Below, piece by piece: positions 7,137 through 60,138 of a stretch of DNA of 64,000 bases (position 1 is its first letter; the number at the start of each line of letters is the position of its first letter). The notes beneath the pieces are model-generated. The model searched no databases, was not told the DNA's origin, and was given only the letters and a program-made list of their open reading frames with translations. Both the position numbers and the translations under genes were made by a program. The DNA is from Patescibacteria group bacterium (lineage in GTDB: Bacteria; Patescibacteriota; Patescibacteriia; UBA9934): the NCBI GenBank assembly GCA_041659765.1, contig JBAZXR010000001.1, positions 595,338-659,337 of the forward strand, given 5' to 3'.

Positions 7137-7142
7137 AGTTTC

Positions 7143-29593: not shown

Positions 29594-30310
29594 CTATACA
29601 ACCTTTCCATTCAGATAATTCGTAGCGATGTCCCGAAAAACTGCCTCAGAGAGTTCGAAGTTGAATAAACGGAAAAGTTCATCTGTGACATTCCTCGCCA
29701 AAAGGAAGATCTCTTCATCATTATTCAATTTATCAATATTCGTAGTTAAAACCGTCTCACTCGTTTTCTCTCTAACGCATAAGTATTCCCAAAAAAGCAT
29801 TCGTGAAGAATTTGCCGACATCAGCCGTCTCCCTTGAAGTTGATGGTGACGAACGGTGATAGATACGGTGGTGTCGCCGGCGATCTTTGCTAAGCGAAAA
29901 AAATTACGGAGATACATCAATGTTTCCGTCACTCGAATGATACGCGTATCGAAAAATACCGCGTTCTCTTTACGCTCATCTTCAAAGATTGTTTTGTATA
30001 AATAGAAAGCCCCGATCGCGTTCCAAGCCCAAAAATCTAAACTTCCTCGGCTTTTGTCGAATACCCGAGCAACGTGACCATCACGATCAGGTTGCGGCTT
30101 AAACTCACTACGATCCAAAAATACAGCAATCGGCCAACCAAACGTCTTAATTGTAGAATCCTTTGCCCAAGTGAGGATATCTCTCTTTTGAAGGCTAAGC
30201 TCATTATCAAAAAATACCTCAACCTCCATAATCCCTCTTTTTTTATCCAACGGAATGGACCTAGCTTCAGTCTTCATTCTATCGAACCACTGTTTTTGAT
30301 TTGCGGTCAT
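29594..30310 (-). CDS. hypothetical protein (238 aa), candidate partner/antitoxin of the upstream RelA/SpoT-domain protein
   Basis: No recognisable domain and no HD motif. Its start overlaps the stop of the RelA/SpoT gene by 4 nt (ATGA). Confidence 0.5.
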   Translation of the reverse strand: MTANQKQWFDRMKTEARSIPLDKKRGIMEVEVFFDNELSLQKRDILTWAKDSTIKTFGWPIAVFLDRSEFKPQPDRDGHVARVFDKSRGSLDFWAWNAIGAFYLYKTIFEDERKENAVFFDTRIIRVTETLMYLRNFFRLAKIAGDTTVSITVRHHQLQGRRLMSANSSRMLFWEYLCVREKTSETVLTTNIDKLNNDEEIFLLARNVTDELFRLFNFELSEAVFRDIATNYLNGKVV

Positions 30311-31071
30311 AAACCATTCTTTTTATCATCCTGCTCTCTAGCCTGCTTTTGTACAAGTTGCCACACCTTTTCACACCCCCTATGAATCAAAGAAATTGCG
30401 TCGCTCAGGTCCTTGGAGTCACCTTTCTCGTCTCTGCCATATAGATATTTCCTATCTTGCACTGCCCAGGCATCACCCAAAACCGTTCTAAGTTGAATTT
30501 CACAATGCAAATCACGCGCGATTCGGTCGTATCTCATTGTCTTGGTTACAGTAAAATGGATTGCGTCATAAAACGGACTTGATCGTCTATCCAGTGTAGC
30601 AGTGTCAGTTTTATTGTTAGTCAATCCTAAAGGAGGTTGATTCCTCATTGGAGTCTTAGTGTCGAATACACCATGTTCATCTTTCGATGTTTTTACACAC
30701 TTACCCTCAAGGCGATATGCCTTCAATTCATTGTCTAATCGGTCAGCAAATTTCCAGAGATCGTCTGCACAATTCAACGTAACCCTTACCCCTGCTATGT
30801 CTTTAAAAGAAAATAGACTTTTATACTTTTTCTTCCCAGAGTTTTTATTCCCATCATTATAATTCTCTAAAATCTTACCGATGTCTTTTATATTCTTTCT
30901 AGCGCCGATTGTCTCCACATCGATTCCAGCCTCCTCACACTCCTCACAGATCTGGTTTACAAACCGTAGAATATTTCTTTGCAACTTTAAATACACAGGA
31001 GCCCAAACCACATATTCCTCTCTAATCTTATCCTCAGCCTTCATAAAACCCGCTTGGGTCAATCGCTCCAA
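30307..31071 (-). CDS. RelA/SpoT-domain nucleotidyltransferase (small alarmone synthetase-like; possible toxSAS)
   Basis: FKDIAGVRVTLNCADDL and HCEIQLRTVLGDAWAVQDRKYLYG match the (p)ppGpp-synthetase fold motifs (D-x-A-G-x-R ... EIQ(I/L)RT). 254 aa. Overlaps the 3' end of the hsdM-S gene by 13 nt. Confidence 0.7.
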   Translation of the reverse strand: MERLTQAGFMKAEDKIREEYVVWAPVYLKLQRNILRFVNQICEECEEAGIDVETIGARKNIKDIGKILENYNDGNKNSGKKKYKSLFSFKDIAGVRVTLNCADDLWKFADRLDNELKAYRLEGKCVKTSKDEHGVFDTKTPMRNQPPLGLTNNKTDTATLDRRSSPFYDAIHFTVTKTMRYDRIARDLHCEIQLRTVLGDAWAVQDRKYLYGRDEKGDSKDLSDAISLIHRGCEKVWQLVQKQAREQDDKKNGL

Positions 31072-33484: not shown

Positions 33485-36052
33485 TTATCCTAAATTGGTT
33501 AGCTGATAAGCGTAGTCACGGACATATTGCGGAACTGTAGTTTTGAACCCGTTAAGTTTTTGATAGTCATCGAAATCAAATGAACCACGAACATTAAATT
33601 CGGCCGGCTTGTTCTGCTTTACAATGTCGCGAACCTCTTCGTCCACAATATACGCCTTAAAGAAGTTTTTGGTTGGTTGGTAGTGTTCCTGGTCTACTTC
33701 ATAAATATCCATGAACTTCTGCCACTCTGACTCCAGAACGTCATCCTTCATCTCGAATGTATCTTTTTCACCAAATGCTACCTGCAAAAACTCTCGAACG
33801 GTGATCCGGCGATCAACACCGAAAATTTTACGGATCTTATCAAGGTTAAGGAAGTATTTTGGCTTGTCGAAAATCTGCTTTTTCGCAAAATCCTCGGCGC
33901 CTTCGGTGTCGCCATTACTCCAGAGATTCTTAAGCGTTTCATTGCCTAGCACATCTTCCTCAACAGCACGCTTAAAACCTTCACGATCAATTCGCATGCC
34001 TTCCTCACCGACTGGAGTCTCCGAAATAGTGGCCAGCTCGTCAGAAGTGGCCAAATCCACGATCCCCTTAAATATCTTCTTGCCATTCTCATCTACAAAT
34101 TCTCCCTGCGCTAATTCCTTACCCGTTGCGGTCTTTTTCTCCTCTGCCTTCTTAACTACCGGAAGCTTGATCTTCTCGTCGTACTTGAATTCTTTTTCAA
34201 AATACTCGCACGTGGCAAAGAAATCGAAAAACTTAAACTTGTCTTTAGCTACCGCGATAACATCACTGTCTTTATAATCCTTATGTTCAAACAAATATGT
34301 TCTAGTTCCACGTCCCTTTATCTGAACAAAATCTGCCGGACTAAAAACCGGACGCATTAGACCAATGTTGAGAAGATCCTGACAGTCGTATCCCGTGGTC
34401 ATCATGCCGACAGTAACAACAACGCGTGTCTTGCCCGTATCATATCCCTCCGGCTCCTTTGCATGACCGCCGAGGCGGTTATTCGCAAAATTAATGGTCA
34501 TTTGTTGTGCATCTTGCACCTGAGAAGTAACCTGCATGGCAAAATCAGATTCTCCGTATTGTTTTGGCCACTTTTCAAACGCTAATCTATTGAGAATATT
34601 AGTGACTCGCGCTGCATGTTTCTGTGAGACACAAAAGACAATGGACTTGCCGAATAATTGAACGCCCAATTTTTCTGCCACTGGATCAAAGATGCCGTTA
34701 TCAACAAATGCCTTACACATGGCAATATTCGTTTCTTCGTTGAAAAACTTTCGCTCGTAGTGCTTTGCGCTATATGTCTCGTCGACCGTTTCTCCACTTT
34801 CAGCTGCAGTGTGAACGCTATACCCTTTTTCCGACAACAACTCAGTCGTGATTTCCGTTCTTGCGTCTACTATCACGGGATTAATCAAATACCCATCTTT
34901 TACACCAGACAACAAATCATATCTAAATGTAGGCTCGCCGGATTCGCAGCCGAAGGTCTTGTACGTGCTTAAAAGCACACGTCGCTCATATTCACGCTGA
35001 GTATCCGCGTCCTCAGCGTCTACGCCCTTTAAGTAGTCCTTCGGAGTCGCGGTTAAACCGAGCTTATAGCCAACAAAGTATTCGAATACTGCCCGACTAT
35101 TACCACCAATTGAACGGTGAGCTTCGTCAGAAATCACTAGCTCAAAATCTGTGGGTGAAAATTCTTTCTTATACCGATCACCTGCCATGAAAGATTGAAT
35201 GGTCGAAACCACTACACTCGCATTCTGCCAAGAATCACGGCTCTCTTTATAGATAACACTTCTAAAATCCTTTCCAAGATACTGAGAAAATGCCTTCTGC
35301 GCCTGGTCCTCAAGCTCGATTCTGTCCACTAAGAATAAAACACGACGAGCATTGCCAGATTTCAGGAAAAGCTTAATAACCGCCGCAGAAATAAGTGTCT
35401 TGCCGGTACCCGTCGCCATTTCAAACAAGAATCTTTGTTTTCCCTCCTTGGCTGACTCTTGCAACGCCTTGATTGCCTGTACTTGATACGGACGAAGCTG
35501 TTTAAGATTATTATTTCTCAAAAATTCGCTTCGCGTTTCCGCATCCTTAAATGCTGGATCCTTAAAAAATCCAGGCATCTGCGTATCTACTACATAGTTC
35601 CCATCAACTAACGTTTTTGCTAGTTCGTCAGGATTCGGGGTGTATTTCTCATATTGTGTAATGGAATCCTGAGTGGGAAAACGAGAAATAGTATCAGGAT
35701 TTCCTTGCTTTGTATCCCAAAAATAGTGAATATTCCCATTTGAAAGAATGATAAATCTCGCTCCAACATTCCGAGCATAATTCCTCGCCTGTTCTTTTGC
35801 TGACAAAGGATCAACAGACTCTTTTTTAGCCTCAACCACAACTAATGGCCTACCGTCTTTATCTAAAAGAAGAAAATCTATAAAACCATGAGCCTCATAC
35901 TCAAAATCATCGCCAAGATCAGCGTATTTCACGCCTGGCTCCAGCTGAATATTCGCCCTGCCCTTCTTCTTATCATCCTCAAACCGCCAGCCTGATTCTT
36001 CGAGGAGTTTGTTAATCTTTATTCTAGCCTTAGCCTCTTTTGCATTTGCCAT
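33485..36052 (-). CDS. hsdR: type I restriction enzyme R subunit (N-terminal PD-(D/E)XK nuclease + SF2 helicase)
   Basis: Nuclease motif GFIDFLLLDKDGRPLVVVEAKK. Helicase motifs ATGTGKT, VISDEAHRS and QIKGRGTR. The stop overlaps the hsdM-S start (ATGA). Confidence 0.85.
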   Translation of the reverse strand: MANAKEAKARIKINKLLEESGWRFEDDKKKGRANIQLEPGVKYADLGDDFEYEAHGFIDFLLLDKDGRPLVVVEAKKESVDPLSAKEQARNYARNVGARFIILSNGNIHYFWDTKQGNPDTISRFPTQDSITQYEKYTPNPDELAKTLVDGNYVVDTQMPGFFKDPAFKDAETRSEFLRNNNLKQLRPYQVQAIKALQESAKEGKQRFLFEMATGTGKTLISAAVIKLFLKSGNARRVLFLVDRIELEDQAQKAFSQYLGKDFRSVIYKESRDSWQNASVVVSTIQSFMAGDRYKKEFSPTDFELVISDEAHRSIGGNSRAVFEYFVGYKLGLTATPKDYLKGVDAEDADTQREYERRVLLSTYKTFGCESGEPTFRYDLLSGVKDGYLINPVIVDARTEITTELLSEKGYSVHTAAESGETVDETYSAKHYERKFFNEETNIAMCKAFVDNGIFDPVAEKLGVQLFGKSIVFCVSQKHAARVTNILNRLAFEKWPKQYGESDFAMQVTSQVQDAQQMTINFANNRLGGHAKEPEGYDTGKTRVVVTVGMMTTGYDCQDLLNIGLMRPVFSPADFVQIKGRGTRTYLFEHKDYKDSDVIAVAKDKFKFFDFFATCEYFEKEFKYDEKIKLPVVKKAEEKKTATGKELAQGEFVDENGKKIFKGIVDLATSDELATISETPVGEEGMRIDREGFKRAVEEDVLGNETLKNLWSNGDTEGAEDFAKKQIFDKPKYFLNLDKIRKIFGVDRRITVREFLQVAFGEKDTFEMKDDVLESEWQKFMDIYEVDQEHYQPTKNFFKAYIVDEEVRDIVKQNKPAEFNVRGSFDFDDYQKLNGFKTTVPQYVRDYAYQLTNLG

Positions 36053-36699: not shown

Positions 36700-38256
36700 T
36701 TACTGCGTCTTCTCACCTGTGAGTAAAAAGTCTAACTCGTTGTCAAAGATTCTTTTAAATTCCGATCGTGGATCCGCATGATCAATAATCTGTTTTGCAA
36801 CTAGATGGGCGTATTTATCTTTAATTATTCCCTCAGGATAATTAATCCTGTGATCTACGCTGCATCCAGAAAGTTCAGCATCGAAATCATTCTTCATTTC
36901 ATTATCGTAGTAATCTTCAATCTGCTTCCTTGATAATACAACGAAACGTTTGGCCGCGATATCCACGTTCATCTTCTGCATCTTCTTGTATTCGGGAGTA
37001 TTTTGGTATTCAGGATCAGTGGGGCTATCAATGATAATGCTGTATTTATCGTAGTAAAATGGGTTGCACTTAAGGAGTGTCTGCTCGGTGTTGAACCTTC
37101 GAATGTGTTCTGCAAAAAGTGGTACATTATTTGCCCCTGCGGCTGAAATAAACCCCCAATTCTTCACGATCCCTTTCTTCTTTAATGCGTCAAGCAATTT
37201 TTGAAGACTAGCCTCCTCGAGAAGACAATAATTTTCAACGTAGCCAAAATCCGTCTCGTCAGCCCCCACCATCTTTGCAGCAATATAGTTAACGCTCTGA
37301 TCATCGAACCCGTCGTTGCCTTTCCCCGGATTACCGTGCTCGTCTACGGTTTGTCCGCCATCAATTAAATATACCTTTTGATCTCTTGGAAAACTTCCGG
37401 ATTTCGAAACAATAAATGGCGAATGTGTAGTTACGAAAAACATTGCGTTATTGACTGATGATAAATCGTTTAAGATTTTTGGAACCAATTTTTGATACTC
37501 AGGGTGAAGAGATGTTTCCGGTTCCTCGATGCAGATGATGTGAAAATAATTTGGGACCTCCGGTCTATCGTTCCTTTTGTAGGACTCCAAATCATTGATC
37601 AATTTCTGCAAATTGAAATAAATCGAAATAAGGCGGATTTGTCCAGACGACAATGCCTTGAGATTAATTCTAGAGCCATCTTCAAGAAGTAACTGAATTG
37701 ATTCAACGCCCGCTGCCGATCTCATTACGTTCGTCACGGGAGAGTTGGTGTATCGATGTCTATTAATGAAATCTCTTAGATCACGTTCTAAAATGAAACT
37801 CGGCAACTTATCAAGATTGATCGCGAGACCCTCCTTGTGGGGCAACGTTCGTCTTGTGTCACTGAAATCGAAATATCGGGCAATATCTCCTAGGGGGAGA
37901 GTTGTGGCCCCTCCTTCAGCCTTCTGCATAACAGCTTTCCCATTTTTAATGAGTGAGGGATCCAGATGCACGTTTACTGTATTGCCTATTCCTTCCGGCT
38001 CGTCATATGAATACGAGAAGTTGAAGTCTGGATGGAATACTTCGAGAGGATCGCCAAAGGCCTCGTCGATGTTGGCGTCACTACGATTGTAATATTGGGA
38101 ATTAAAAGCCATCATGATCAATTCGAGAACCGAGCTTTTTCCTGCGCCGTTTTTTCCAATTAAATAATTGACCTTCTTTAATTTTGTAATTTCAAATGAT
38201 GAAGCCTTGATATTTTTATACCCAGAGATACTTAATTTGCTCAACATAAACTCCAT
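36700..38256 (-). CDS. ABC-type AAA ATPase of the OLD/AAA_15-21 family with a possible C-terminal Toprim-like domain (putative anti-phage defence)
   Basis: Walker A LIGKNGAGKSSVLE, ABC signature-like ALSSGQIRLISIY, Walker B IICIEEPETSLHP, H-loop VTTHSP. The C-terminal ~200 aa carry Toprim-like acidic residues (CLLEEAS ... IIIDSPTDPE). Confidence 0.6.
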   Translation of the reverse strand: MEFMLSKLSISGYKNIKASSFEITKLKKVNYLIGKNGAGKSSVLELIMMAFNSQYYNRSDANIDEAFGDPLEVFHPDFNFSYSYDEPEGIGNTVNVHLDPSLIKNGKAVMQKAEGGATTLPLGDIARYFDFSDTRRTLPHKEGLAINLDKLPSFILERDLRDFINRHRYTNSPVTNVMRSAAGVESIQLLLEDGSRINLKALSSGQIRLISIYFNLQKLINDLESYKRNDRPEVPNYFHIICIEEPETSLHPEYQKLVPKILNDLSSVNNAMFFVTTHSPFIVSKSGSFPRDQKVYLIDGGQTVDEHGNPGKGNDGFDDQSVNYIAAKMVGADETDFGYVENYCLLEEASLQKLLDALKKKGIVKNWGFISAAGANNVPLFAEHIRRFNTEQTLLKCNPFYYDKYSIIIDSPTDPEYQNTPEYKKMQKMNVDIAAKRFVVLSRKQIEDYYDNEMKNDFDAELSGCSVDHRINYPEGIIKDKYAHLVAKQIIDHADPRSEFKRIFDNELDFLLTGEKTQ

Positions 38257-43468: not shown

Positions 43469-43560
43469 GCTGAAAAGTTGAAAAGGTTGAAAAAGCTGTA
43501 AAGTGGGAATCTGATTGAATTACTTTTTTAACTTTCTTTGGCTTTTTTAACTTTTTTAAC
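43469..43560. repeat. Family-E AT-rich inverted-repeat element (copy E1) between pheS and pheT
   Basis: AAAAGTTGAAAAGGTTGAAAAAGCTGTAAAG ... CTTTTTTAACTTTCTTTGGCTTTTTTAACTTTTTTAAC. The arms match the element at 60044-60138. Confidence 0.65.
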
Positions 43561-43561
43561 T

Positions 43562-44644
43562 CTAAAACTGTTCAAGAAACCTCAAATCATTCTTATACAT
43601 GATGCGGATGTCGTCGATGTTTAAACCGGAACGCATCATAGCGGTGCGCTCAACTCCCCAACCGAAGGCAAAACCTTGATACTCTTTGGGATCAAGTCCG
43701 CCGGCTTTCAAAACATTCGGATGCACCATGCCGGCGCCGCCGAGTTCAAGCCAACCAGCTTTACAAAGCTTACATTTCACACCAGCGACAAGTCCTGTGC
43801 CTTCGCACATACCGCAAGAAATGTCGAGTTCAAAGCTCGGCTCGGTAAAGCGGAAATGATATGGACGCAAACGGGTAACGCGCCCTTCGCCGAAGAATTG
43901 TTTTGCGAAGTAATCGCAAACGCCCTTGAGTTCCGTGACGGTCGCGGTTTTGTCGATAACTAAACCTTCGAACTGGTGGAACATCGAGAGATGACGAGGT
44001 GTGGATTGTCGACGATAGCATTTGCCGATGTTGATCATGCGAATTGGCAACTGGCCTTTCTCCATCTCGCGTACCTGTGCGTTACTTGTGTGTGGAGTTA
44101 ATACAATCTTGCCTTTTTCGCCTGTCGCGGTTGTTGGTTGTCGGCCGTCGGTCGTCGAGGCGACAAAAAATGTTTCCCAATCATCACGAGCCGGATGATC
44201 CTTTGGCATGTTGAGCGACTCGAACGCGTAATAATCCCAATCGATCTCGGGATGACGAGCGCGGACAAAGCCGATGCGCGAAAAAATATCGGAAATTTCC
44301 TCGATCGCCTGGCTCGTAATATGGAGATGGCCGACAGCGGGCTCGGTTCCTGGCAAAGAAATGTCCAGCCATTCTTTTTCTGCACGTGAAGCAGACTCCG
44401 TGGCGTCCAGTCTCGCCTTTGCGGCCTCGAAAGCTCCCTCTATGGCAGCTTTCACTTCATTGGCCTTCTGTCCGGCAGCTCTCTTTTCTTCGTTCGATAA
44501 GCTTGGCAAGTCAGACATGATGTCCGCCAGTCTTCCCTTTCGGCCAAGGAACGCAACTCTGGAAGCCTCAAGTTCTTCCGCGTTCGCGATTGTCGAAAAT
44601 GCTTTGAGGCACTCGGTTTCAAGTTCTTGTAGTCGGTTGATCAT
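43562..44644 (-). CDS. pheS: phenylalanyl-tRNA synthetase alpha subunit
   Basis: Class II core with FRFTEPSFELD and GAGMVHPNVL motifs. Confidence 0.92.
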   Translation of the reverse strand: MINRLQELETECLKAFSTIANAEELEASRVAFLGRKGRLADIMSDLPSLSNEEKRAAGQKANEVKAAIEGAFEAAKARLDATESASRAEKEWLDISLPGTEPAVGHLHITSQAIEEISDIFSRIGFVRARHPEIDWDYYAFESLNMPKDHPARDDWETFFVASTTDGRQPTTATGEKGKIVLTPHTSNAQVREMEKGQLPIRMINIGKCYRRQSTPRHLSMFHQFEGLVIDKTATVTELKGVCDYFAKQFFGEGRVTRLRPYHFRFTEPSFELDISCGMCEGTGLVAGVKCKLCKAGWLELGGAGMVHPNVLKAGGLDPKEYQGFAFGWGVERTAMMRSGLNIDDIRIMYKNDLRFLEQF

Positions 44645-44662
44645 AGAATTTTGTTCGGCTCA

Positions 44663-44738
44663 GTCATCCTGAGGAGCTCCGAGCGACGAAGGATCCGATT
44701 GGGCAACCATTCAGATTCTTCGCTCCGCTCAGAATGAC
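44663..44738. repeat. Family-A palindromic intergenic element (copy A1, inverted relative to A2)
   Basis: GTCATCCTGAGGAGCTCCGAGCGACGAAGGATCCGATTGGGCAACCATTCAGATTCTTCGCTCCGCTCAGAATGAC. Its reverse complement is about 92% identical to 47821-47893. Confidence 0.8.
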
Positions 44739-44752
44739 ACTACCGTTTGTCC

Positions 44753-45835
44753 TCAAAAGAGTTTCACGATGTCCTTATATGTAACAAACAATACCAGCAA
44801 GATCAACAGCGCAAAGCCAATGGTGTGGGCGGCTTGTTCGAACTGGAGGCTATTGGGTTTTCGACGAACGGCTTCGACAAAGACAAAGAGGGCGCGACCG
44901 CCGTCTAGGGCTGGAAACGGAATAGCATTTAAGACGGCCAAGTTAACAGACAAGAGCGCGGCAAATTGCACCAAATGCCAGAAGCCTAGGCGTGCCACCT
45001 GACCAGTCAAGGAGGCGATTCCGATCGGACCAGAGAGGTCAGCCGCCACGTTCCGATGTTGGAAGAGACCCGCGATAAGTCCAACAAATGCACCGACTAT
45101 GTCATACGTCATGCCCGCCGTGGTCACCAGTCCCTTAATAGGCGCGACGTAGAAAGGAAAACGCACCGTACCTGTCTCCACAATGGCTACACCAATAATC
45201 GGTCTGCCCGCCTCAGCGTTGAACTCAGGGATGATGTCCGCCTCTTTAGTTCCGCCATCATGTGTAAAAACAACATGTACCGGCGAGCCGTCCGCATGCG
45301 GTACGAGTGCGGCACGAGCCTCTTCGCCGTTAGCGTACGTTTTGCCATCAATAGCCGTGATCTGATCCCCCTCACTTAGTCCAGCTTTGTGCGCGGGGCT
45401 CTCAGAAAGAACCTGCATGACGTTCACGGCGCGGTTTGAAATAATGGCTGATTTATAATCCACGCCCTCAATGATTGAGGGCAGACCAAACATAAAACCC
45501 GCGGTGAATAACACCCAGGCCAACAGAAAGTTCATGATGACGCCCGCGAACAACACGTACAGACGCGCTGGAATACTCTTTTGGGCAAACGCGTCATGTT
45601 CGCCTCTCTTCTCCCCATTCTCACCCTTAATACGCACAAAACCGCCGAGGGGGATAAGGTTCACGCTCCACAGCATGCCGTTTCTGTCTTTCTTCCCAAA
45701 AAGCCTAGGCGGAAAACCAAAACCAAATTCTTCAACACTCATCCCCATCTGCCGCGCCGCAATATAGTGGCCAAGTTCATGCACGAGCACGAGCAAGGAG
45801 AGAACGAGAAGAAAAACAAAGATGGTGAGCAGCAT
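44753..45835 (-). CDS. rseP: site-2 protease RseP (M50 zinc metalloprotease with PDZ domain)
   Basis: HELGHY (HExxH), a PDZ segment and LNAIPFPALDGG (LDG motif). Confidence 0.9.
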   Translation of the reverse strand: MLLTIFVFLLVLSLLVLVHELGHYIAARQMGMSVEEFGFGFPPRLFGKKDRNGMLWSVNLIPLGGFVRIKGENGEKRGEHDAFAQKSIPARLYVLFAGVIMNFLLAWVLFTAGFMFGLPSIIEGVDYKSAIISNRAVNVMQVLSESPAHKAGLSEGDQITAIDGKTYANGEEARAALVPHADGSPVHVVFTHDGGTKEADIIPEFNAEAGRPIIGVAIVETGTVRFPFYVAPIKGLVTTAGMTYDIVGAFVGLIAGLFQHRNVAADLSGPIGIASLTGQVARLGFWHLVQFAALLSVNLAVLNAIPFPALDGGRALFVFVEAVRRKPNSLQFEQAAHTIGFALLILLVLFVTYKDIVKLF

Positions 45836-45853
45836 AATATCGGGGAGATTGTA

Positions 45854-47188
45854 CTACCCCTGGATGATTTTCGCGAGTTCGTCGCGTTTTGCCTCCATCA
45901 GCTCCTTAGAAGTCGCTTCGACGATGAGGCGGAGCAAGGGTTCGGTGTTTGAGGCGCGCAGAATAAACCACCAGTCGCGACCAAATTCGCAACGGATACC
46001 GTCCAGGCGGTTGACGGAGCTCGCCTGCGAGACGTATGCGTCTTCCACACGCTTTGTGGCCGCGACCTTATCATGGACTTCGAAGTTTACTTCCCAGCTG
46101 TTCGAGTATTTGCGAAGAGGGGCGGAGATTTTGCTAAGGGGTTTCTTGGCTTTGGCGATGAGCGACAACATTCGGCAGAAAGCAAAGTCAACAGCCTCCA
46201 GGCCGGCGAATTCGGCAAAAAAGAAGTGACTAGACACTTCCCCGCCGAGCTTTGCGCCTTCGGTTCTCATGCCTTCAACCACGCGCGTGCGGCCGATTTG
46301 TCTCTGTACGCCTTTGCCGCCGTGTTCATTGATAGCGTCGAGTGTAGCCCAGGTGTGATTTGGCTGATAAATGATTGTCGCTCCTGGATTTCTTTCAAGT
46401 TCGTCGGCCGCTAACAGCGCAAGGGTTTCATCCCCGCGGAGCGGGACACCCTTGTTGTCGAGGAACCCGATTCTATCTGCGTCACCGTCGAGCGCTGCCC
46501 CAAAGGCAAAGTCGCCTGAAGCAAGAAGCTTCTCAATCTCGGCCAATGTTTCGCGCTTGTTTGGGTTGGCTTCGTGATTTGGGAATCGGGCGTCGGGCTC
46601 GGCGTAAAGCTCCGTGAGTTCAAGTCCGAGACGCTTGGCGAGCGGCCGGAAGGCAACCGTTCCCATGCCATTGCCGTAGTCCACAGCGATCTTCATGCCC
46701 TTCACGTCCGGGAGATTTGCGTTCTTGATGCAGGCCTCCACGTACTCCTCGACCACGTTGTGATCAGTCACTTTTCCTAGATCGAGCAGTGCGCCATCGT
46801 CCTTTTTGATCTCGTCGAGAATAGCTGGCCCGGAAATCGGCAACCCCGAACCATCTCCAAATTTAATACCGTTGTACTCCGCGGGATTATGAGAAGCAGT
46901 CACCATGAGCCCGGCGTCGACATTCTTGAGACTTGATATGGCAAAATTGAAGACACTCGTAGTCGTTAGACCGATATTGAGTGCATCGGCACCCATGCTT
47001 CTGATGCCTCTGATCGCCTCCGCTTGCAGTGCCTCGCTCGTGCTGCGCATATCACGGCCGACGACGACTGTTTTTGCGCCAGTCTTACGCACAATTGCTC
47101 GACCGGCCAGGTACGCGACCTCTGGCGAGACCTCTTCAAGTAAACCGCGAATGTCATTAGCTTTGAAAATATGTTCCGGAAGTTGCAT
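45854..47188 (-). CDS. phosphoglucosamine/phosphomanno-mutase (alpha-D-phosphohexomutase family)
   Basis: FKANDIRG start, active-site TASHNPAEYNG, metal loop DGDADR. Confidence 0.85.
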   Translation of the reverse strand: MQLPEHIFKANDIRGLLEEVSPEVAYLAGRAIVRKTGAKTVVVGRDMRSTSEALQAEAIRGIRSMGADALNIGLTTTSVFNFAISSLKNVDAGLMVTASHNPAEYNGIKFGDGSGLPISGPAILDEIKKDDGALLDLGKVTDHNVVEEYVEACIKNANLPDVKGMKIAVDYGNGMGTVAFRPLAKRLGLELTELYAEPDARFPNHEANPNKRETLAEIEKLLASGDFAFGAALDGDADRIGFLDNKGVPLRGDETLALLAADELERNPGATIIYQPNHTWATLDAINEHGGKGVQRQIGRTRVVEGMRTEGAKLGGEVSSHFFFAEFAGLEAVDFAFCRMLSLIAKAKKPLSKISAPLRKYSNSWEVNFEVHDKVAATKRVEDAYVSQASSVNRLDGIRCEFGRDWWFILRASNTEPLLRLIVEATSKELMEAKRDELAKIIQG

Positions 47189-47245
47189 AGATGGCTGAAG
47201 AATACTACAGTAATGCTAATACTCTTTAACCGTTGAGGCAAAACT

Positions 47246-47797
47246 ATGATGTTTCTACCAATCATTGTCTTGATCCTAGTGGCTGTCGGTTTCTGGCTGA
47301 TCGGAGTGTACAACGGATTGGTCACACTCAAAACTCGCGTAGAAGAAGCTCTTGGCGATATTGAGGTTCAGCTCAAGCGCCGCTATGACCTCATTCCAAA
47401 CCTGGTAAACACGGTTAAAGGTTACGCGCAGCATGAAGATTCTGTTTTTACGAAAGTCACCGAGGCACGCAGTCACGCTATGCAAGCTTCCACGCCGGCT
47501 CAACACGCGGAGGCCGAGGGCATGCTAACGAACACGCTTAAATCGCTCTTCGCGGTTGCCGAAAGCTACCCAGACCTTAAGGCCAATGACAACTTCCGCC
47601 ATTTGCAATCAGAGCTAGTGGACACCGAAGACAAGATTCAAGCCTCCCGCCGTTTCTACAACGGCCAGGTTCGCGATTTCAACATTCGCCTAGCCGTCTT
47701 CCCAAACAACATGATCGGCAACTCTCTTGGTTTCAAAAAGTACGATTTCTACGATGCACCAGATGAGGCAAATGCAGTGCCTGAGGTGAAATTCTAA
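47246..47797 (+). CDS. lemA: LemA family protein
   Basis: N-terminal TM followed by VQLKRRYDLIPNLVNTVKGYAQHE, the LemA signature. Confidence 0.88.
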   Translation: MMFLPIIVLILVAVGFWLIGVYNGLVTLKTRVEEALGDIEVQLKRRYDLIPNLVNTVKGYAQHEDSVFTKVTEARSHAMQASTPAQHAEAEGMLTNTLKSLFAVAESYPDLKANDNFRHLQSELVDTEDKIQASRRFYNGQVRDFNIRLAVFPNNMIGNSLGFKKYDFYDAPDEANAVPEVKF

Positions 47798-47820
47798 GAC
47801 GACGAAGGAAAGCGAATACA

Positions 47821-47893
47821 GTCATTCTGAGCGTAGCGAAGAATCTGAATGGTCAACCAATCAGATCCTTCGTCGCGGAGCTCCTCAGGATGA
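47821..47893. repeat. Family-A palindromic intergenic element (copy A2)
   Basis: GTCATTCTGAGCGTAGCGAAGAATCTGAATGGTCAACCAATCAGATCCTTCGTCGCGGAGCTCCTCAGGATGAC. The left and right halves are mutually complementary. Confidence 0.8.
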
Positions 47894-48774
47894 CTGAACT
47901 TATGTACTCCCAAATCACCGCCAACAAACGCAAGACCTGGTTATTGATTGCAATTGCCTGCGCGGTGATTGTGGTTTTAAGTGTGGCCTTTGGCGCGGCA
48001 TATAACGTGGACGCGGGGTCGTCTGTTGTCATCGGTACAATCTTTGCGAGTATTTACTCGCTCTTCAGCTATTACTTCTCCGACAAAATTGCGCTCTCGG
48101 TAAACGGAGCAAAACAGATAGAGAAAAAAGATGCGCCGGAGATTTGGAACATTGTGGAGAACCTGTGTATTGCTGACGGCGTCCCGATGCCGAAGATCTA
48201 CATCATGGATGACGCCGCGCCAAATGCGTTTGCCACAGGTCGAGATCCTCAGCATGCATCAATTGCGTTTACAACGGGTCTCCTCTCAATTCTCGATAAA
48301 CAAGAACTGGAAGGCGTGACGAGCCACGAGCTGTCGCACATTAAGAATTATGATCTGCGCGTGATGACCATCGTTGTCGTCCTGGTGGGCGCGATCATGA
48401 TCATGAGTAACATCTTCCTCCATTCTCGATTCAGTGGCGGGGGAAGGAAAAATGACGCGCTCGTTGCTTTTGTGCTCGTCGGTATTGTGCTTTCAATCCT
48501 CTCCCCCATCTTCGCCCAGCTCATTCAGCTCGCCGTATCACGACAGCGGGAATACCTCGCCGACGCGTCTGGAGCGTTACTGACGCGGTTCCCCGAGGGA
48601 CTTGCAAGTGCGCTTGAGAAGATTTCCCGCGCCAACGTACCCATGCAGAATGCGAACAAAGCTACGGCCCACTTGTTCATCGCCAACCCGTTCGGGAACA
48701 AAGTGGCCGGCTGGTTTTCTACGCATCCTCCCGTCGAGGAGAGAATTAAACGATTGAGGGAAATGGGAGGTTAA
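47890..48774 (+). CDS. htpX: protease HtpX (M48)
   Basis: HELSHIKNYD (HExxH), four TM segments, classic lemA-htpX pairing. The start may instead be the ATG at 47902. Confidence 0.88.
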   Translation: MTELMYSQITANKRKTWLLIAIACAVIVVLSVAFGAAYNVDAGSSVVIGTIFASIYSLFSYYFSDKIALSVNGAKQIEKKDAPEIWNIVENLCIADGVPMPKIYIMDDAAPNAFATGRDPQHASIAFTTGLLSILDKQELEGVTSHELSHIKNYDLRVMTIVVVLVGAIMIMSNIFLHSRFSGGGRKNDALVAFVLVGIVLSILSPIFAQLIQLAVSRQREYLADASGALLTRFPEGLASALEKISRANVPMQNANKATAHLFIANPFGNKVAGWFSTHPPVEERIKRLREMGG

Positions 48775-48788
48775 GCCGTCTCCACTCT

Positions 48789-48864
48789 GAGCCTTGCGAA
48801 GAGTCCGACCCTCAGAGGGGAAAGTCGGATCCTTCGCTCTCGCTCAGGATGGGAACCATCGATA
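48789..48864. repeat. Family-B palindromic intergenic element (copy B2)
   Basis: CTCTGAGCCTTGCGAAGAGTCCGACCCTCAGAGGGGAAAGTCGGATCCTTCGCTCTCGCTCAGGATGGGA. About 95% identical to B1 at 7143-7216. Confidence 0.8.
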
Positions 48865-48870
48865 ATCCAT

Positions 48871-51177
48871 ATGTCCGACTTAGTTGATAAATTTTCTCCC
48901 CACTTAAACACCGCGCTCACCCGGGCGTTGACTTTGGTTCTCCAGGAAGGAAGCGAGTCGATTACGCCGGAACATTTGTTTTGGGCAATTGGAACGGAAG
49001 ATTCCTGTCTGGGCGCACAGCTCCTCAAAAAGTCAGGACTCGAGGCGGCTGCTTTTGAAGAACTCACCAAACCGGCCGGCCGTAGCTCAATGACTGACCC
49101 GAAAGCTCCAAAAACTAAACCCTTTCTTTCGGTCGACGCTAAGGCTGCCATGGAGAAGGCAATGCTCGCTGCCAACCTGCACGATCACCCGCTCGTGACA
49201 ACCGAGCATCTTTTATTTGGCATCCTCGCCCTCCGTCCGCTCGCGATCAGCGCCGTGTTCAAAAAAGCTGGTGTTGATGCCGAGAAAATACAGGAAGAAC
49301 TCACTCAAATTTTTAGGGAGACGCGCGCACCAGAACCACAGCCCGCCGAAGTTCGCCCGACCGGCGTGCGCGAAGTTAAGAAAGCGCCCGCTCAGCCGTG
49401 TATAAAGTGTGGACACGTTCACGATGAAGTAGCTGACGCCAACGAGCAATCCGCGCTCGAGTTTTTTAGTACTGAGTTAACGGGTGCCGATCACGTCAAA
49501 AAGATCGATGCCTTAATTGGTCGTAACATGGAGATCGATAGACTCGCGCGCATTCTTACGCGGAAAACAAAAAATAACCCGCTTCTCCTTGGTGCTCCGG
49601 GCGTAGGCAAAACGGCGATCGTCGAGGGTCTCGCCAAGAGAATTGTCGACGGTTCCGCTCCGGCCGGGCTCAAGGGAACAAAAATTTACATGCTCGATAT
49701 GTCCGCCATGCTGGCTGGCACTATGTATCGAGGTGATTTCGAGGAACGCTTGCACGATGTTATCGAGGATCTTAAGGAGGCAAAGAATGCTGTTTTATTT
49801 ATTGACGAAGTCCACACGCTCGTCGGCACTGGTTCTGGATCCGGCGCACTCGACGCGGCGAACATTATGAAGCCGTCCCTGGCCCGTGGCGAGATTCGCG
49901 TCATTGGGGCCACGACGCGCGAGGAGTACAAAAAACACATTGAAGATGACGGCGCGCTAGCGCGCCGTTTCGCCCCCGTTTCGGTTCGTGAACCATCTGC
50001 CGATGAGACCAAATCGATCTTGATCGGCCTGGCCCCCGCCTACGCCAAGCATCACGGTGTGACCTTTGCCAAAGAAGCCTTTGCGACAATTGTCGAAATT
50101 TCTGGCCGTTACTTCCCGCATAAAGCATTTCCAGACAAGGCTATCGACCTACTCGACGAAGTTGGCAGCGCCTGCCGGACAAAGAAACTCGACATCACCA
50201 CAGACGACGTGCGCCGTGTGGCCGCCACCGTAACCGGCGTTCCGCTCGAGAGGCTCGAAGCCAATGATAGTGACAAACTCAAAACGCTCAAATCTCGACT
50301 TGCCGACCGTGTCCTTGCTCAGACAGAAGCCGTCGAAGCCGTAGCATCAAGCATCATCCGCGCCAAACTCGGCTTTCACCGCGCCGAGAAACCGCTCGCC
50401 TCTTTTCTGTTCGTCGGTCCGTCCGGAGTTGGGAAGACAGAAATGGCCAAGGCCGTAGCAGCGGAAGTTTTTGAAGATGAGAAGGCTTTGATCCGGCTCG
50501 ACATGAGTGAATATGCGGAAAGTTTTAGCGCCAGCAAACTCATTGGTTCTCCCCCAGGCTACGTGGGTTACAAAGAGGTCGCTCGATTAACTGATGCGGT
50601 CAAAGCTCGCCCATACTCGGTCGTCTTGTTCGACGAACTTGAAAAAGCACACAAAGACGTTCATCACCTACTTCTCCAAATTCTCGACGAAGGAACCATT
50701 ACTGACGCGACTGGTACGGCCGTTAATTTCAGAAACACCGTCATCATCATGACTTCAAACGCCGGTCGAGAGTTGTTCGAGCGCGGTTCCCTTGGCTTCA
50801 CCGGTAAGGCGATTAAGGAGAAGATCGATATGCGCACGATTCTCGAAGACGAGTTTAAGGCCGAATTTTTGAACCGCATCGATCGCATTTGTTTGTTCGG
50901 TGCGTTAACACCCGCCGACATGGAAAAGATTGCCAAGCGCGAACTAAAAGAACTCGAACTTCGCCTCAAGAACCGTGGAATCTCGCTCAAAGCCGATGCT
51001 GCCGCTCTAACTCAACTCGCGAAGTCCGTGAACCCCAAACTCGGTGCCCGGGATGTCCGCCGCGTCATTGCCGAAGCCATCGAACGACCGCTGGCAGACA
51101 AGGTACTAAATAATCTTGGAAAGAAAGCAAAAAACTATCGAGTCCGCGCCGGTAAGAAAGGGGTAGAGATCGCATAA
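48871..51177 (+). CDS. clpC: Clp/Hsp100 ATPase with two AAA+ modules (ClpC/ClpA-like)
   Basis: Clp-N repeat, NBD1 ([15 protein letters not shown]...VLFIDEVHTLVG), NBD2 (FVGPSGVGKTEMAKA...VVLFDELEKAH...RNTVIIMTSNAG). A short CIKCGH insert lies between the N-domain and NBD1. Confidence 0.85.
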   Translation: MSDLVDKFSPHLNTALTRALTLVLQEGSESITPEHLFWAIGTEDSCLGAQLLKKSGLEAAAFEELTKPAGRSSMTDPKAPKTKPFLSVDAKAAMEKAMLAANLHDHPLVTTEHLLFGILALRPLAISAVFKKAGVDAEKIQEELTQIFRETRAPEPQPAEVRPTGVREVKKAPAQPCIKCGHVHDEVADANEQSALEFFSTELTGADHVKKIDALIGRNMEIDRLARILTRKTKNNPLLLGAPGVGKTAIVEGLAKRIVDGSAPAGLKGTKIYMLDMSAMLAGTMYRGDFEERLHDVIEDLKEAKNAVLFIDEVHTLVGTGSGSGALDAANIMKPSLARGEIRVIGATTREEYKKHIEDDGALARRFAPVSVREPSADETKSILIGLAPAYAKHHGVTFAKEAFATIVEISGRYFPHKAFPDKAIDLLDEVGSACRTKKLDITTDDVRRVAATVTGVPLERLEANDSDKLKTLKSRLADRVLAQTEAVEAVASSIIRAKLGFHRAEKPLASFLFVGPSGVGKTEMAKAVAAEVFEDEKALIRLDMSEYAESFSASKLIGSPPGYVGYKEVARLTDAVKARPYSVVLFDELEKAHKDVHHLLLQILDEGTITDATGTAVNFRNTVIIMTSNAGRELFERGSLGFTGKAIKEKIDMRTILEDEFKAEFLNRIDRICLFGALTPADMEKIAKRELKELELRLKNRGISLKADAAALTQLAKSVNPKLGARDVRRVIAEAIERPLADKVLNNLGKKAKNYRVRAGKKGVEIA

Positions 51178-56668: not shown

Positions 56669-56712
56669 CAGTCCTTGCGAGACCGGCTGTAATCAGCCGT
56701 GTCGAAGCAATC
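56669..56712. repeat. Family-C hairpin repeat (copy C1)
   Basis: CAGTCCTTGCGAGACCGGCTGTAATCAGCCGTGTCGAAGCAATC. Confidence 0.7.
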
Positions 56713-56715
56713 TCA

Positions 56716-57015
56716 ATGACATCTATGGAAGAGCGAAACTACTACGTGTATTTCATGACGAATCCTAATAATTCCGTCATCTATACAGGAGTTACGAATG
56801 ATATCTCTCGTCGAGTGCAGGAGCATAAGGAGAAGTATGTCGAAGGATTCACGAAGAGATACAACTGCACCAAACTTGTTTACGTTGAGGTGTTTTCGAC
56901 TGCATACGATGCCATTTCTCGCGAAAAACAGATCAAGGGCGGATCGAGGAATAAAAAGATGCTTCTTATTGCGCAGGAGAACCCAACGTGGCGAGATATT
57001 TCTGAGGAGCTCTAA
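56716..57015 (+). CDS. GIY-YIG nuclease superfamily protein (UPF0213/YhbQ-like, 99 aa)
   Basis: YYVYFMTNPNNSVIYTGVTNDISRRVQEHK...LVYVEVF...REKQIKGGSRNKK. Flanked on both sides by family-C repeats. Confidence 0.8.
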   Translation: MTSMEERNYYVYFMTNPNNSVIYTGVTNDISRRVQEHKEKYVEGFTKRYNCTKLVYVEVFSTAYDAISREKQIKGGSRNKKMLLIAQENPTWRDISEEL

Positions 57016-57022
57016 CTCCTTC

Positions 57023-57126
57023 AGTCTTTGCGAGACCAGACGTAATCGTCTGTGTCGAAGCAATCCCAATGCTATCTTTTTCGAGGTTGCTTCGAGTTGC
57101 CGTCAAACGGCACTCTCGCAAAGACC
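57023..57126. repeat. Two adjacent family-C hairpin repeats in opposite orientation (C2 direct, C3 inverted)
   Basis: CAGTCTTTGCGAGACCAGACGTAATCGTCTGTGTCGAAGCAATC, then ~20 nt, then TTGCTTCGAGTTGCCGTCAAACGGCACTCTCGCAAAGAC. Confidence 0.7.
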
Positions 57127-58190: not shown

Positions 58191-59900
58191 ATGAAAACAA
58201 CTTCATCAACCGCAGTACAAACAACAACAGCTACCCTCGTCGGAATTGCCATCATGGCCACCGGATTACTCGCGGCCGCAGCCGGGTTTGTCGTCGCGGC
58301 AAGTAATACAGGGCCGGTTCTCAACATTAAGGCAACGCCTCTACCTGGCGCACACGGAACCGTACAGGGCGCTCAACGAGAACCCATGCTCGGCTTCACG
58401 CTCGAGGCGAAAAATAAGGCTATCCTCATCGAATCGCTCACCTTTAATGTCCTGGCGGACAGCGACGGGAACTTCAAGGAAATTCAAAACGATCTCTCCG
58501 CCAGTGATCTCCTCCTGTCGTGCATGCTGATCAACAAGCGAACCGGGGCTGCAGTAGCGAGCCCGGTTTCTGTAACCAACGGGAACATGATCACATTTGA
58601 AGATAAGTTTACCCTTACTGCAAACTCAATCACCCCTTTCACCATTCTCTGCGACCATGCAAATACACTCATCACTAATCCGTACATCATGGGCGTTGAG
58701 CTGACCGGATATCCAGGGTATGTCGTGGCGACGGTCGCGGCTACCGGAAACAATTTGCCGGACAACCGTATCAATGTAGGAACTATCACGGATGCTGGAG
58801 TGAACGTAGCACTCACCACCTCGGTAACGATTCGTTCACGCGGCATGCTCCAGGTTTCATTAAGCCCCATCGCCCCAAGCAGCGACCTCACCATCAAAAA
58901 TAGCTCCGTCAAAGCAGCAGCATTTAAATTCACCGCGGCAGGTGAAGCTTACACAATCCAAAAACTCACCATTCAAAATATAGGCGATGACGCAGCGGTG
59001 AAAACAATCAAAATCACCTATAAGAACGCCTCTGGAGCCACAATTACAAACACCTCGACCCTTTCGAACCATTTTGCACAGTTCTCTGGGATTGATATTG
59101 CAGTGCCGACTGGCGCAGCGAACGCTGCAACGGTTGAAGTAACTGTAGATACAGCCGATATCAGCGCTACGGGCTCCGGCTCGTCCGGACAGACCTTTAG
59201 TGAAGCAATCGCCTTCTTGCCGGGCGGACTCTTTAAGGCCGTAGGCAACACCTCAGGCTCCGTTATCACCGAAAGTGAAATGGGCTACGGTTATCAGGGC
59301 GGAACCTTTACCCTCCGTGAAACTCGCCCGACCATTACCCTCCATTCAGCAAGCCCAACCGGTCCAGCTGTACCAGGTCGCAACGAGGTCTTACGATTCA
59401 ACGTAGCTGCTGATCCAGCCGAAGATCTGAGCATGTCCCAAATAACCTTCAAAGTTAACGCAACGTCCGTTGACTCGCCGTGGGCATCATGCGGTTCTTC
59501 AACAGTTAGCGGACTAGGCGATGTCACCAAATGGGAACTTAAAGACCTCACAACCGGTGAAGTGCTAACCAATAACAATTCTTGGATAATCATGAATGCG
59601 GATGGCGGCCAGTGTGGTCCGACTGATCGTGTGCAATCCGTGATCGCCTACGCACTCGCAAACCTGGTACATGGCACCATCTTCGCAGGAACAACTCACA
59701 CGCTCTCACTTATTGTAGATTCAACCGGCGCAAGCCAAAGTCAGGACGATCAAATTCAAGTTGAAATAACAAGTGAGCCAACACATGAGTTTCCACTTCT
59801 TCATAGCATCCAGTGGCGCGAAGGAGTTAATGGACCAGATCTCATAAACGGTAGTTTTATTAAGAACCTCCCAATTCGTGGCTTTACGCTCCAGTTCTAA
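58191..59900 (+). CDS. large Thr/Ser/Ala-rich cell-surface protein (569 aa), N-terminal signal anchor
   Basis: Starts 2 nt after the stop of the AAA gene. N-terminal hydrophobic segment. Predicted beta-rich extracellular repeats. No family recognised. Confidence 0.55.
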   Translation: MKTTSSTAVQTTTATLVGIAIMATGLLAAAAGFVVAASNTGPVLNIKATPLPGAHGTVQGAQREPMLGFTLEAKNKAILIESLTFNVLADSDGNFKEIQNDLSASDLLLSCMLINKRTGAAVASPVSVTNGNMITFEDKFTLTANSITPFTILCDHANTLITNPYIMGVELTGYPGYVVATVAATGNNLPDNRINVGTITDAGVNVALTTSVTIRSRGMLQVSLSPIAPSSDLTIKNSSVKAAAFKFTAAGEAYTIQKLTIQNIGDDAAVKTIKITYKNASGATITNTSTLSNHFAQFSGIDIAVPTGAANAATVEVTVDTADISATGSGSSGQTFSEAIAFLPGGLFKAVGNTSGSVITESEMGYGYQGGTFTLRETRPTITLHSASPTGPAVPGRNEVLRFNVAADPAEDLSMSQITFKVNATSVDSPWASCGSSTVSGLGDVTKWELKDLTTGEVLTNNNSWIIMNADGGQCGPTDRVQSVIAYALANLVHGTIFAGTTHTLSLIVDSTGASQSQDDQIQVEITSEPTHEFPLLHSIQWREGVNGPDLINGSFIKNLPIRGFTLQF

Positions 59901-59910
59901 AACCAAAAGC

Positions 59911-59949
59911 TTGCTTCGAGCTGCCGTCGAACGGCACTCTCGCAAAGAC
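59911..59949. repeat. Family-C hairpin repeat (copy C4, inverted)
   Basis: TTGCTTCGAGCTGCCGTCGAACGGCACTCTCGCAAAGAC. Confidence 0.7.
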
Positions 59950-59963
59950 TGAGCAGACAAGGA

Positions 59964-60043
59964 AAAACAAAAACCAGTGTTGGCGAGAAAATGTTAGGAG
60001 GTAATCCGACTCCATTTTCGAGACAATACTGGTCTTTTGTTTT
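59964..60043. repeat. Family-D palindromic element (copy D2, inverted relative to D1)
   Basis: AAAACAAAAACCAG...TAGGAGGTAATCCGACTC...CTGGTCTTTTGTTTT. Confidence 0.75.
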
Positions 60044-60138
60044 AGTTGAAAAAGTTAAAAAAGCCGAAGAAGGTTAAAAAGTAAATGCACCATCGGGATG
60101 GTACTTTACAGCTTTTTCAACTTTTTTAACTTTGTTAA
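60044..60138. repeat. Family-E AT-rich inverted-repeat element (copy E2)
   Basis: AGTTGAAAAAGTTAAAAAAGCCGAAGAAGGTTAAAAAGTAAA-[TGCACCATCGGGATGGTAC]-TTTACAGCTTTTTCAACTTTTTTAACTTTGTTAAC. Confidence 0.7.

Follow-up and report, generated by a model that had tools for sequence, protein, structure and literature searches.

We analysed a 64,000-nt stretch of DNA from a Patescibacteria group bacterium (contig JBAZXR010000001.1, positions 595,338 to 659,337), hereafter the window. We focused on four intergenic hairpin elements, each about 75 nt long, named A1, A2, B1 and B2. With a probability of roughly 80%, these are head-to-head pairs of two different Ssn-related motifs (SRMs), that is, of repetitive extragenic palindromes (REPs) tagged with CGTC or TGTC. 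They are predicted recognition sites for Ssn, a family of single-domain GIY-YIG nucleases. The assignment rests on architecture and on association with the protein, not on the published SRM pattern. The system is already known. Its repeats were defined in 2013 (Di Nocera et al., BMC Genomics 14:522; PMC3733652) and its enzyme was described in 2025 (Chenal et al., Nat Commun 16:2388; PMC11893778). At the level of sequence, the class of arm described here, with G·A in the stem, is a divergent and widespread variant that the published SRM motif misses.

A sequence-only reading of the window had proposed the four copies, and a repeat search with alignment recovered all of them (Table 1). Its coordinates were correct for A1, ended 1 nt short for A2 and were shifted by +10 nt for B2 (48789-48864). 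B1 and B2 form a 76-nt direct repeat, 41.6 kb apart, with 96% identity; 95% had been estimated. A1 and A2 form an inverted repeat of 56 nt at 91% and 22 nt at 100% identity, with a 2-nt indel between the two segments, which bears out the earlier figure of about 92%. The termini had been said to be common to both families. Consistent with this, two blocks are invariant across A and B when the four copies are aligned, CAYTCTGAG-N4-GCGAAGARTC and GATCCTTCG-(6-12 nt)-CTCAGGATG. The centre differs between A and B yet remains self-complementary. As the first reading had supposed, every copy is a predicted hairpin. RNA folding, which had been suggested as a check, gave a long hairpin for each copy on either strand (-34 to -42 kcal/mol), with values of -40 to -42 kcal/mol and z -3.2 to -7.5 recorded for the four copies, and A2 also folds stably as DNA (-20.5 kcal/mol, z -5.6). 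Pfam matches confirmed the flanking genes as rseP to pheS, lemA to htpX, htpX to clpC and thyA to HIT. The copies had been placed between convergent or tandem gene ends; all four gaps lie between tandem genes and none (0/4) between convergent ones. A1, A2 and B2 are in the sense orientation relative to the flanking genes, while B1 is antisense.

Each copy consists of two inverted arms of about 25-35 nt. Read on its own strand, an arm comprises a (T/C)GTC tag, a 5-nt stem, GA, a mini stem-loop, a second GA, the complementary 5-nt stem and a C. The mini stem-loop is GC-GNA-GC, GC-CTT-GC, GC-GAGA-GC or a longer hairpin, and the short spacer between arms is itself self-complementary. Arms in the window read TGTC-ATTCT-GA-GC-GNA-GC-GA-AGAAT-C-TNN, and B arms have CC-AC where others have GTC-AT. 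All four copies are arranged head-to-head, with the tags outside. The stem has nine positions, starts A-T, T-A and carries G·A/A·G at positions 6-7; the loop either has 3 nt or takes the form of a long hairpin, and the tail is C-T-N. The opposed, conserved GA dinucleotides would thus form tandem G·A mismatches. Across 65 arms, GTC and the C of column 25 vary little or not at all, and among 100 full elements GTC is preceded by T in 73% and by C in 15%.

The left and right arms differ (ATTCT...AGAAT and ATCCT...AGGAT, respectively) because pairing is within each arm. The most frequent within-arm 5-mer pairs are ATTGC/GCAAT (224), ATCCT/AGGAT (170) and ATTCT/AGAAT (166), followed by ACCCT/AGGGT (10), ATTCC/GGAAT (9), ATCGC/GCGAT (8) and ACTCT/AGAGT (5). 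Mixed combinations occur only 7 and 5 times. For the two arms of 184 full elements, perfect matches were found within the arm in 173 and 163 cases and across arms in 13 and 16. In a set of 65 arms chosen without regard to pairing, 88.8% of cells pair and double changes occur in 5 of the 7 pairs; these values were reached in none of 500 shuffles. The window contains an example of such compensation. The left arm of B has ACTCT/AGAGT where that of A has ATTCT/AGAAT, a compensatory double change. Heterodimers predominate, with 139 of the 184 full elements being ATTCT+ATCCT and 8 being homodimers. Folding models prefer one long hairpin, whereas covariation prefers local pairing within the arm.

This is the layout of the CGTC/TGTC-tagged REP superfamily, with its head-to-head heterodimers (PMC3733652), and the REP-like behaviour first suggested for the copies was therefore well founded. 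Briefly, CGTC REPs (CGTC-1 to -4) have an unpaired tag, often TGTC and also CCTC, a stem of 8-9 bp with A-T and T-A first, a loop of 4-5 nt and a 3-nt tail (PMC3733652). Head-to-head dimers predominate, many are heterodimers, and the spacer ends are complementary (PMC3733652). The superfamily includes dRS3 of Neisseria and RPE-4 and RPE-6 of Rickettsia, was described in five phyla, and is not associated with tyrosine transposase genes (PMC3733652). The elements studied here share the CGTC/TGTC tag, the head-to-head heterodimers, the complementary spacer ends and the lack of a tyrosine transposase; the AT-first stem of 8-9 positions and the short tail correspond in part. The described families are fully paired with loops of 4-5 nt. 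In contrast, the present arms have G·A/G·A in the stem, their loop is GNA (3 nt) unless a long hairpin is inserted, and their spacers are shorter (10-40 nt).

To survey other genomes, a two-arm pattern derived from the four window copies was scanned over one genome per species. At least 120 stretches were recovered. According to record titles they come from Planctomycetota, Acidobacteriota, Verrucomicrobiota, Bacteroidota, several families of Bacillota, Alpha-, Beta- and Gammaproteobacteria, Nitrospirota, Nitrospinota, Chloroflexota, Gemmatimonadota, Myxococcota, Synergistota, Zixibacteria, Omnitrophota, Melainabacteria-type Cyanobacteriota and lineages of the candidate phyla radiation. The arm class with the G·A mismatch was found in at least 17 phylum-level groups. 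Because the same class of element occurs in so many stretches from many phyla, the copies are not explained by a local segmental duplication. The consensus is near-uniform everywhere: TGTCATTCTGAGCGNAGCGAAGAATC, a variable self-complementary spacer, then GATCCTTCGCTNCGCTCAGGATGACA. Element length ranges from 59 to 107 nt. In 100 full elements the GTCAT...ATGAC core is preceded by Y-T and followed by A-R. As a separate observation, four loci (L001, L090, L094 and L116) have a second motif nested in the right arm (...GATCCTTCG-cggAGTTTACCCTGAGCG.AGCGAA.GGGCTCAGG...), which suggests insertion of one arm type into another.

The nuclease with which such repeats are associated has been characterised in Neisseria meningitidis. 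SsnA is a 94-aa single-domain GIY-YIG protein (cd10448) that binds the hairpin repeat NTS, CGTCATTCCCGCGMAVGCGGGAATCYRG, which contains dRS3 (PMC11893778). NTS has the form CGTC-ATTCCCGC-GMAV-GCGGGAAT-C-YRG, and the variant NTSvar is CGTC-ATACTCGGG-N5-CCCGAGTAT-C (PMC11893778). SsnA acts on single-stranded DNA (ssDNA) only, and on one strand only, cutting a few nucleotides upstream; double-stranded DNA and RNA are not substrates and RNA is not bound (PMC11893778). The Neisseria and Wolbachia enzymes bind the folded motif solely on the tagged ssDNA strand and cut upstream of the tag (PMC11893778). Cutting depends on the 3 nt that precede the palindrome, and binding on the C that follows it (PMC11893778). 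SRMs lie near 71% of ssnA homologues, and on both sides in 42% (PMC11893778). SsnA lowers transformation by NTS-bearing DNA (PMC11893778).

The window encodes a 96-aa homologue of this enzyme. PF01541 covers residues 5-78 (E=2.7e-18), no other domain was found in the protein, and the closest solved structure is 1ZG2, UPF0213 protein BH0048 (E=2.7e-6). Comparison was made with the gonococcal orthologue of SsnA, not with the N. meningitidis protein itself. BLASTP against this 94-aa orthologue gave 44% identity (2e-27), and tblastn against the N. gonorrhoeae record gave E=1e-17 over 89% of the protein. These values place it among SsnA homologues as defined by Chenal et al. (tblastn E<1e-10, alignment >75% of the query; PMC11893778). 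In the alignment, the catalytic Y6, Y17 and E64 (N. meningitidis numbering) correspond to Y9, Y20 and E67 of the window protein. The gonococcal ssnA open reading frame (ORF) is surrounded by five canonical NTS within 1 kb around it. Similarly, the window ssn carries hairpin arms on both sides, of a further type, C. The sequence before ssn is arm-like (GTCCTTGCGAGA-hairpin-GTCGAAGCAATC), and ssn is followed by a second copy and then an inverted partner. The upstream C arm (56671-56715) ends 10 nt 5' of the start codon and folds as DNA at -11.2 kcal/mol (z -4.2).

The same association is seen in other bacteria. Among the stretches found by the two-arm pattern, two contain ssn homologues. In one (L063), ssn lies between two complete A-type elements; in the other (L042), it is inside one A-type element, directly after the left arm. 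We also examined 80 metagenome loci, drawn from more than 560 relatives by protein similarity alone, and counted arms within 120 nt of ssn using strict 11-nt terminus motifs. A 5' arm terminus was present upstream at 51 of 76 loci and the mirror terminus downstream at 61 of 77. A terminus occurred on either side at 66 of 73 loci (90%) and on both sides at 41 of 73 (56%), against a background of 0.69 per kb. The upstream arm ends some 10-25 nt short of the ATG, and the mirror arm is typically 1 nt past the stop codon. For about 20% of ssn genes the gene lies between whole pairs and not inside one. Most of these loci have arms of a sister type, GTCATTGCGAG...CGAAGCAATC / GATTGCTTCG...CTCGCAATGAC, and exactly A-type arms were found at L196, L187 and L193. 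Together with a Planktothrix agardhii plasmid, L196, L042 and L063 are cases where A-type arms bracket or adjoin ssn. With two exceptions, arm type follows the protein tree. Among isolates, ssn is surrounded by A-type arrays on the P. agardhii plasmid and stands next to a CCC-type pair on a Spirosoma plasmid.

Thus, the present system and the published Ssn/SRM pairs have in common a single-domain GIY-YIG protein of about 95 aa with the catalytic Tyr, Tyr and Glu kept, encoded by a gene bracketed by hairpin repeats. They also share the unpaired (C/T)GTC tag, the AT-first stem, the short loop and the C after the stem, and in both the repeats are intergenic, multi-copy and spread over many phyla. 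They differ in the stem, which here has 5 bp, a tandem G·A and a 2-bp mini-stem, and there 8-9 perfect pairs. In addition, the arms here mostly form tight, heterotypic inverted pairs that make a hairpin of 60-105 nt. There is also a likeness to the Neisseria elements called NIMEs, variable segments bounded by inverted dRS3/NTS repeats (as cited in PMC11893778 and PMC3733652), although NIMEs are large mosaics and the units here are mostly single and compact.

The sequences establish the arm anatomy, the pairing within arms, the homology of the protein, its association with arms and their distribution across phyla. Binding and cleavage by this organism's enzyme, the choice of enzyme that would serve the A and B arms and any biological role we infer by analogy with the characterised enzymes, 44% identical to the window Ssn. 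In the proposed scheme, DNA would become single-stranded during replication, repair or the entry of transforming or conjugative DNA. The cognate Ssn would bind each folded arm on the tagged strand. It would then introduce nicks immediately outside the pair, in the top strand on the left and in the bottom strand on the right. The outcome may be that SRM-bearing ssDNA is restricted, as happens in Neisseria, that the repeats and an SRM-ssn-SRM unit are propagated, or both.

Several observations weigh against identifying the A and B elements as Ssn sites. First, the published SRM pattern, HGTCWYN(0-2)YYVSBRHN(0-5)WNVSBRGN(0-2)RNCYNB (PMC11893778), has no match in the window and matches 0 of 586 arms of this class, compared with five beside gonococcal ssnA. 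Second, the characterised motifs have perfect stems, with nothing that corresponds to the conserved tandem G·A in the middle of the present ones. Changing the stem sequence, with the hairpin kept, abolishes SsnA activity (PMC11893778), so that cleavage of the present arms is a prediction. Third, the window Ssn is flanked by C-type and not by A or B arms, and the enzyme for the latter may be elsewhere or absent. Finally, a whole pair as a single strand is predicted to form one long hairpin (-20.5 kcal/mol), which could mask the arms, and short arms on their own have a weak predicted fold by nearest-neighbour rules (-3.6 kcal/mol, z -0.8).

A different interpretation is that of a selfish element. 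Here, arm-ssn-arm would be an autonomous element of about 400 bp, resembling an insertion sequence, with Ssn as its ssDNA transposase or homing nuclease; the ORF-less A and B pairs would be non-autonomous and moved in trans. We consider this possible but doubtful. The unit is tight, with the ORF usually between two arms, and the ORF-less A-type pairs share the polarity of the ORF-bearing L196 (ATTCT left, ATCCT right). Near-identical copies occur within genomes, as for B1 and B2, and tandem copies are present in L093, L118, L042 and L209. That arm type follows the protein tree, with the two exceptions, also fits. Furthermore, the authors of the Ssn paper likened the NTS-ssnA-NTS layout to an insertion sequence and to the pairing of REPs with REP-associated tyrosine transposases (RAYTs) (PMC11893778). 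Like ssDNA transposons, the elements have no target-site duplication: direct repeats of 1, 2 and 3 nt in the flanks were found in 10, 1 and 1 of 100 full elements, where 25, 6.3 and 1.6 were expected.

Closely related P. agardhii plasmids offer a comparison. In No.66 p1 (L209), a hairpin array, ssn and a second hairpin array lie between an MmeI-type gene and DISARM drmA. In NIES-204 plasmid3 (L211) and PCC7805 p1 (L212), whose flanks are 92-95% identical, three tandem hairpins and then a module of a hypothetical gene plus PIN replace the ssn arrangement. Plasmids of this group thus carry either ssn or the hypothetical-PIN module beside the same hairpin array. However, the difference is a replacement and not a clean insertion. 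Excision, insertion or an empty-site pair was demonstrated neither here nor in PMC11893778, the known activity is a single cut in ssDNA without strand-transfer chemistry, and roughly 20% of ssn genes are placed between whole pairs and not within one. Elements are also rare in viral contigs, where we found just 8 A-type stretches and no ssn relatives. The compact unit, shared polarity, near-identical copies and Planktothrix polymorphism are compatible with mobility but do not prove it. An extended version of this idea is unlikely. It holds that the G·A arm class and its Ssn clade are an autonomous ssDNA transposon or homing unit of about 400 bp, that the 60-105-nt pairs are derivatives resembling miniature inverted-repeat transposable elements (MITEs), and that the whole spread horizontally through the at least 17 phylum-level groups, with Ssn as the mobilising enzyme and not only a host factor for ssDNA restriction. 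If this were so, bacteria would have in the arm-ssn-arm unit their smallest self-contained mobile element.

The sequence-only reading had instead suggested that the hairpins terminate or stabilise transcripts. On this account they would act in the transcript between cistrons: as terminators, as sites of RNase processing or by stabilising mRNA. The predicted RNA folds are indeed very stable (-40 to -42 kcal/mol), 3 of the 4 copies are sense within apparent operons and 16-23 nt upstream of start codons, and the left end of B1, on the reverse strand, gives GGAGA five bases before the HIT start codon. The idea nevertheless gained no support, and we judge it distinctly improbable. Six terminator-like sites were called in 44000-49500, none of them on an element, and no copy has a T-tail. 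Among the at least 120 loci, the elements in tandem gaps favour neither direction with respect to transcription (29 sense, 28 antisense); a further 21 elements are in convergent and 14 in divergent gaps. The outward tags and the within-arm pairing are symmetric on both DNA strands, which fits recognition of DNA and not of a transcript. No arm matched an Rfam family in gathering and permissive scans of the window and six related loci, and SsnA does not bind RNA (PMC11893778). Secondary effects of the elements on mRNA may occur.

REPs are classically mobilised by RAYTs, and a RAYT had been named as the partner to look for. With the paired units of such REPs (REPINs) and with bacterial interspersed mosaic elements, the present elements share inverted, short, imperfect palindromes that form a larger hairpin and the lack of target-site duplication. 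In both systems, moreover, repeats border the gene for the small nuclease that recognises them, here by prediction, as ssDNA hairpins. They differ in the fold of the nuclease (GIY-YIG here, not HUH-Y1), in the tag (GTC, not GTAG) and in that ssn is multi-copy in some assemblies and located inside the pair. Hence, although the elements are short intergenic palindromes in inverted pairs, with conserved terminal inverted repeats and a variable centre, it is barely credible that they are REPs or REPINs moved by a RAYT (Y1 HUH) transposase or classical MITEs of a DDE insertion sequence, since an all-against-all ORF comparison found no recurrent neighbouring transposase, RAYT-type or other, at the at least 120 loci (not all window ORFs were scanned for RAYT), the tag is (T/C)GTC and not GTAG, CGTC-tagged REPs are reported not to flank tyrosine transposase genes (PMC3733652), target-site duplication is absent and the recurrent neighbour is the GIY-YIG gene ssn. 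Other candidates were rejected outright. Hammerhead and other small self-cleaving ribozymes, suggested by CUGAG...CGAAG, do not fit in the core, and orientation is unbiased. With arrays and cassettes absent, CRISPR, already discounted in the first reading, and integron attC sites are ruled out. A tRNA scan found none.

Identification of the elements as Ssn-related pairs links an intergenic hairpin that is common and near-identical in widely separated bacteria to a system whose enzyme is known. It further implies that the SRM pattern passes over what may be the main subclass in the environment. The G·A class offers concrete new candidate pairs of enzyme and site for ssDNA tools, and the compact arm-ssn-arm unit is a testable case of whether Ssn drives the spread of repeats. 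For annotation of the window, the elements should not be called terminators, and one of them, A2, overlaps the first in-frame ATG of htpX.

Table 1. Positions of the A, B and C arms, the ssn homologue and the gaps occupied by the A and B elements, in window coordinates.
Feature	Position	Strand	Description
B1	7141-7216	+	Inverted arm pair, tags outward; antisense to both flanking genes
B1 left arm	7143-7171	+	CC-ACTCT-GA-GT-CTT-GC-GA-AGAGT-C
B1 right arm	7186-7215	-	CC-ATCCT-GA-GC-GAGA-GC-GA-AGGAT-C
B1 gap			thyA (stop 7217) to HIT (start 7136), filled by B1
A1	44663-44738	-	Inverted arm pair; same sense as rseP and pheS
A1 short arm	44710-44738	-	ATTCT/AGAAT
A1 long arm	44663-44699	+	ATCCT/AGGAT
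A1 gap			rseP (stop 44753) to pheS (start 44644)
A2	47821-47894	+	Inverted arm pair
A2 short arm	47821-47849	+	ATTCT/AGAAT
A2 long arm	47860-47894	-	ATCCT/AGGAT
A2 gap			lemA (stop 47797) to htpX
B2	48779-48854	+	Inverted arm pair
B2 arm	48781-48809	+	
B2 arm	48824-48853	-	
B2 gap			htpX (stop 48774) to clpC (start 48871)
C-type arm	56671-56715	+	GTC-CTTGC-GAGA-(hairpin CCGGCTG TAAT CAGCCGTG)-TCGAA-GCAAT-C
ssn homologue	56725-57015	+	96 aa, single-domain GIY-YIG nuclease family
C-type inverted pair	57024-57125		No ORF; directly 3' of ssn stop codon
C-type arm	57024-57068	+	83% identical to 56671 arm
C-type arm	57082-57125	-	
Solitary C-type arm	59906-59949	-	93% identical to 57084-57125; just after ORF 58191-59900

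Further features of the window were recorded alongside the repeats. In htpX, the earliest in-frame ATG (47890) falls within the terminal CTCAGGATGAC of A2, and the next ATG is 17 nt downstream, at 47907. The htpX start may be 47907 because an exact-protein look-up from 47890 matched no record. A look-up with the clpC protein likewise matched none, and a blastn comparison of the window with all retrieved loci gave nothing. On the reverse strand, the left end of B1 (7136-7147) reads GTGGAGA-AACT-ATG, placing a Shine-Dalgarno-like GGAGA before the HIT-family start with AACT between; the repeat terminus may have been exapted here. Immediately 3' of the ssn cassette, the segment 57185-59900 holds a 334-aa ORF that covers no more of a Clp/Hsp100-type ATPase than its first AAA module and lid and, 2 nt on, a 569-aa ORF without a Pfam match. 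These may be a split or rearranged gene beside the repeat cluster.

Two other repeat families are present. An 84-nt inverted pair (267-352 and 59963-60046) is 83% identical and is a separate family, unrelated to the Ssn arms; each copy is a 33-bp hairpin (268-300 / 320-352), with loop GAGTCGGATTACCTCCTAA and complement TTAGGAGGTAATCC. AT-rich repeats of the (A)AAGTTAAAAAAG type occur, inverted, at two distant intergenic sites (43474-43561 and 60044-60141) and gave only weak, sub-threshold matches to miRNA families in Rfam.

The segment 29600-38300 has a GC content of 41-45%, compared with about 52%, and is probably an acquired island. It contains a defence-type gene cluster: a fused N6-methylase and specificity subunit (31059-33482), a type I/III restriction helicase (33485-36052), a weak RelA/SpoT-like ORF (30307-31071) and an AAA_15/AAA_21 ATPase (36700-38256). 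Finally, a SAM-I riboswitch (RF00162, 56.3 bits, E=2.6e-10) lies at 26473-26569 on the + strand, directly 5' of ORF 26598-27557, which is the SAM (S-adenosylmethionine) synthetase gene metK (Pfam S-AdoMet_synt N, M and C domains).

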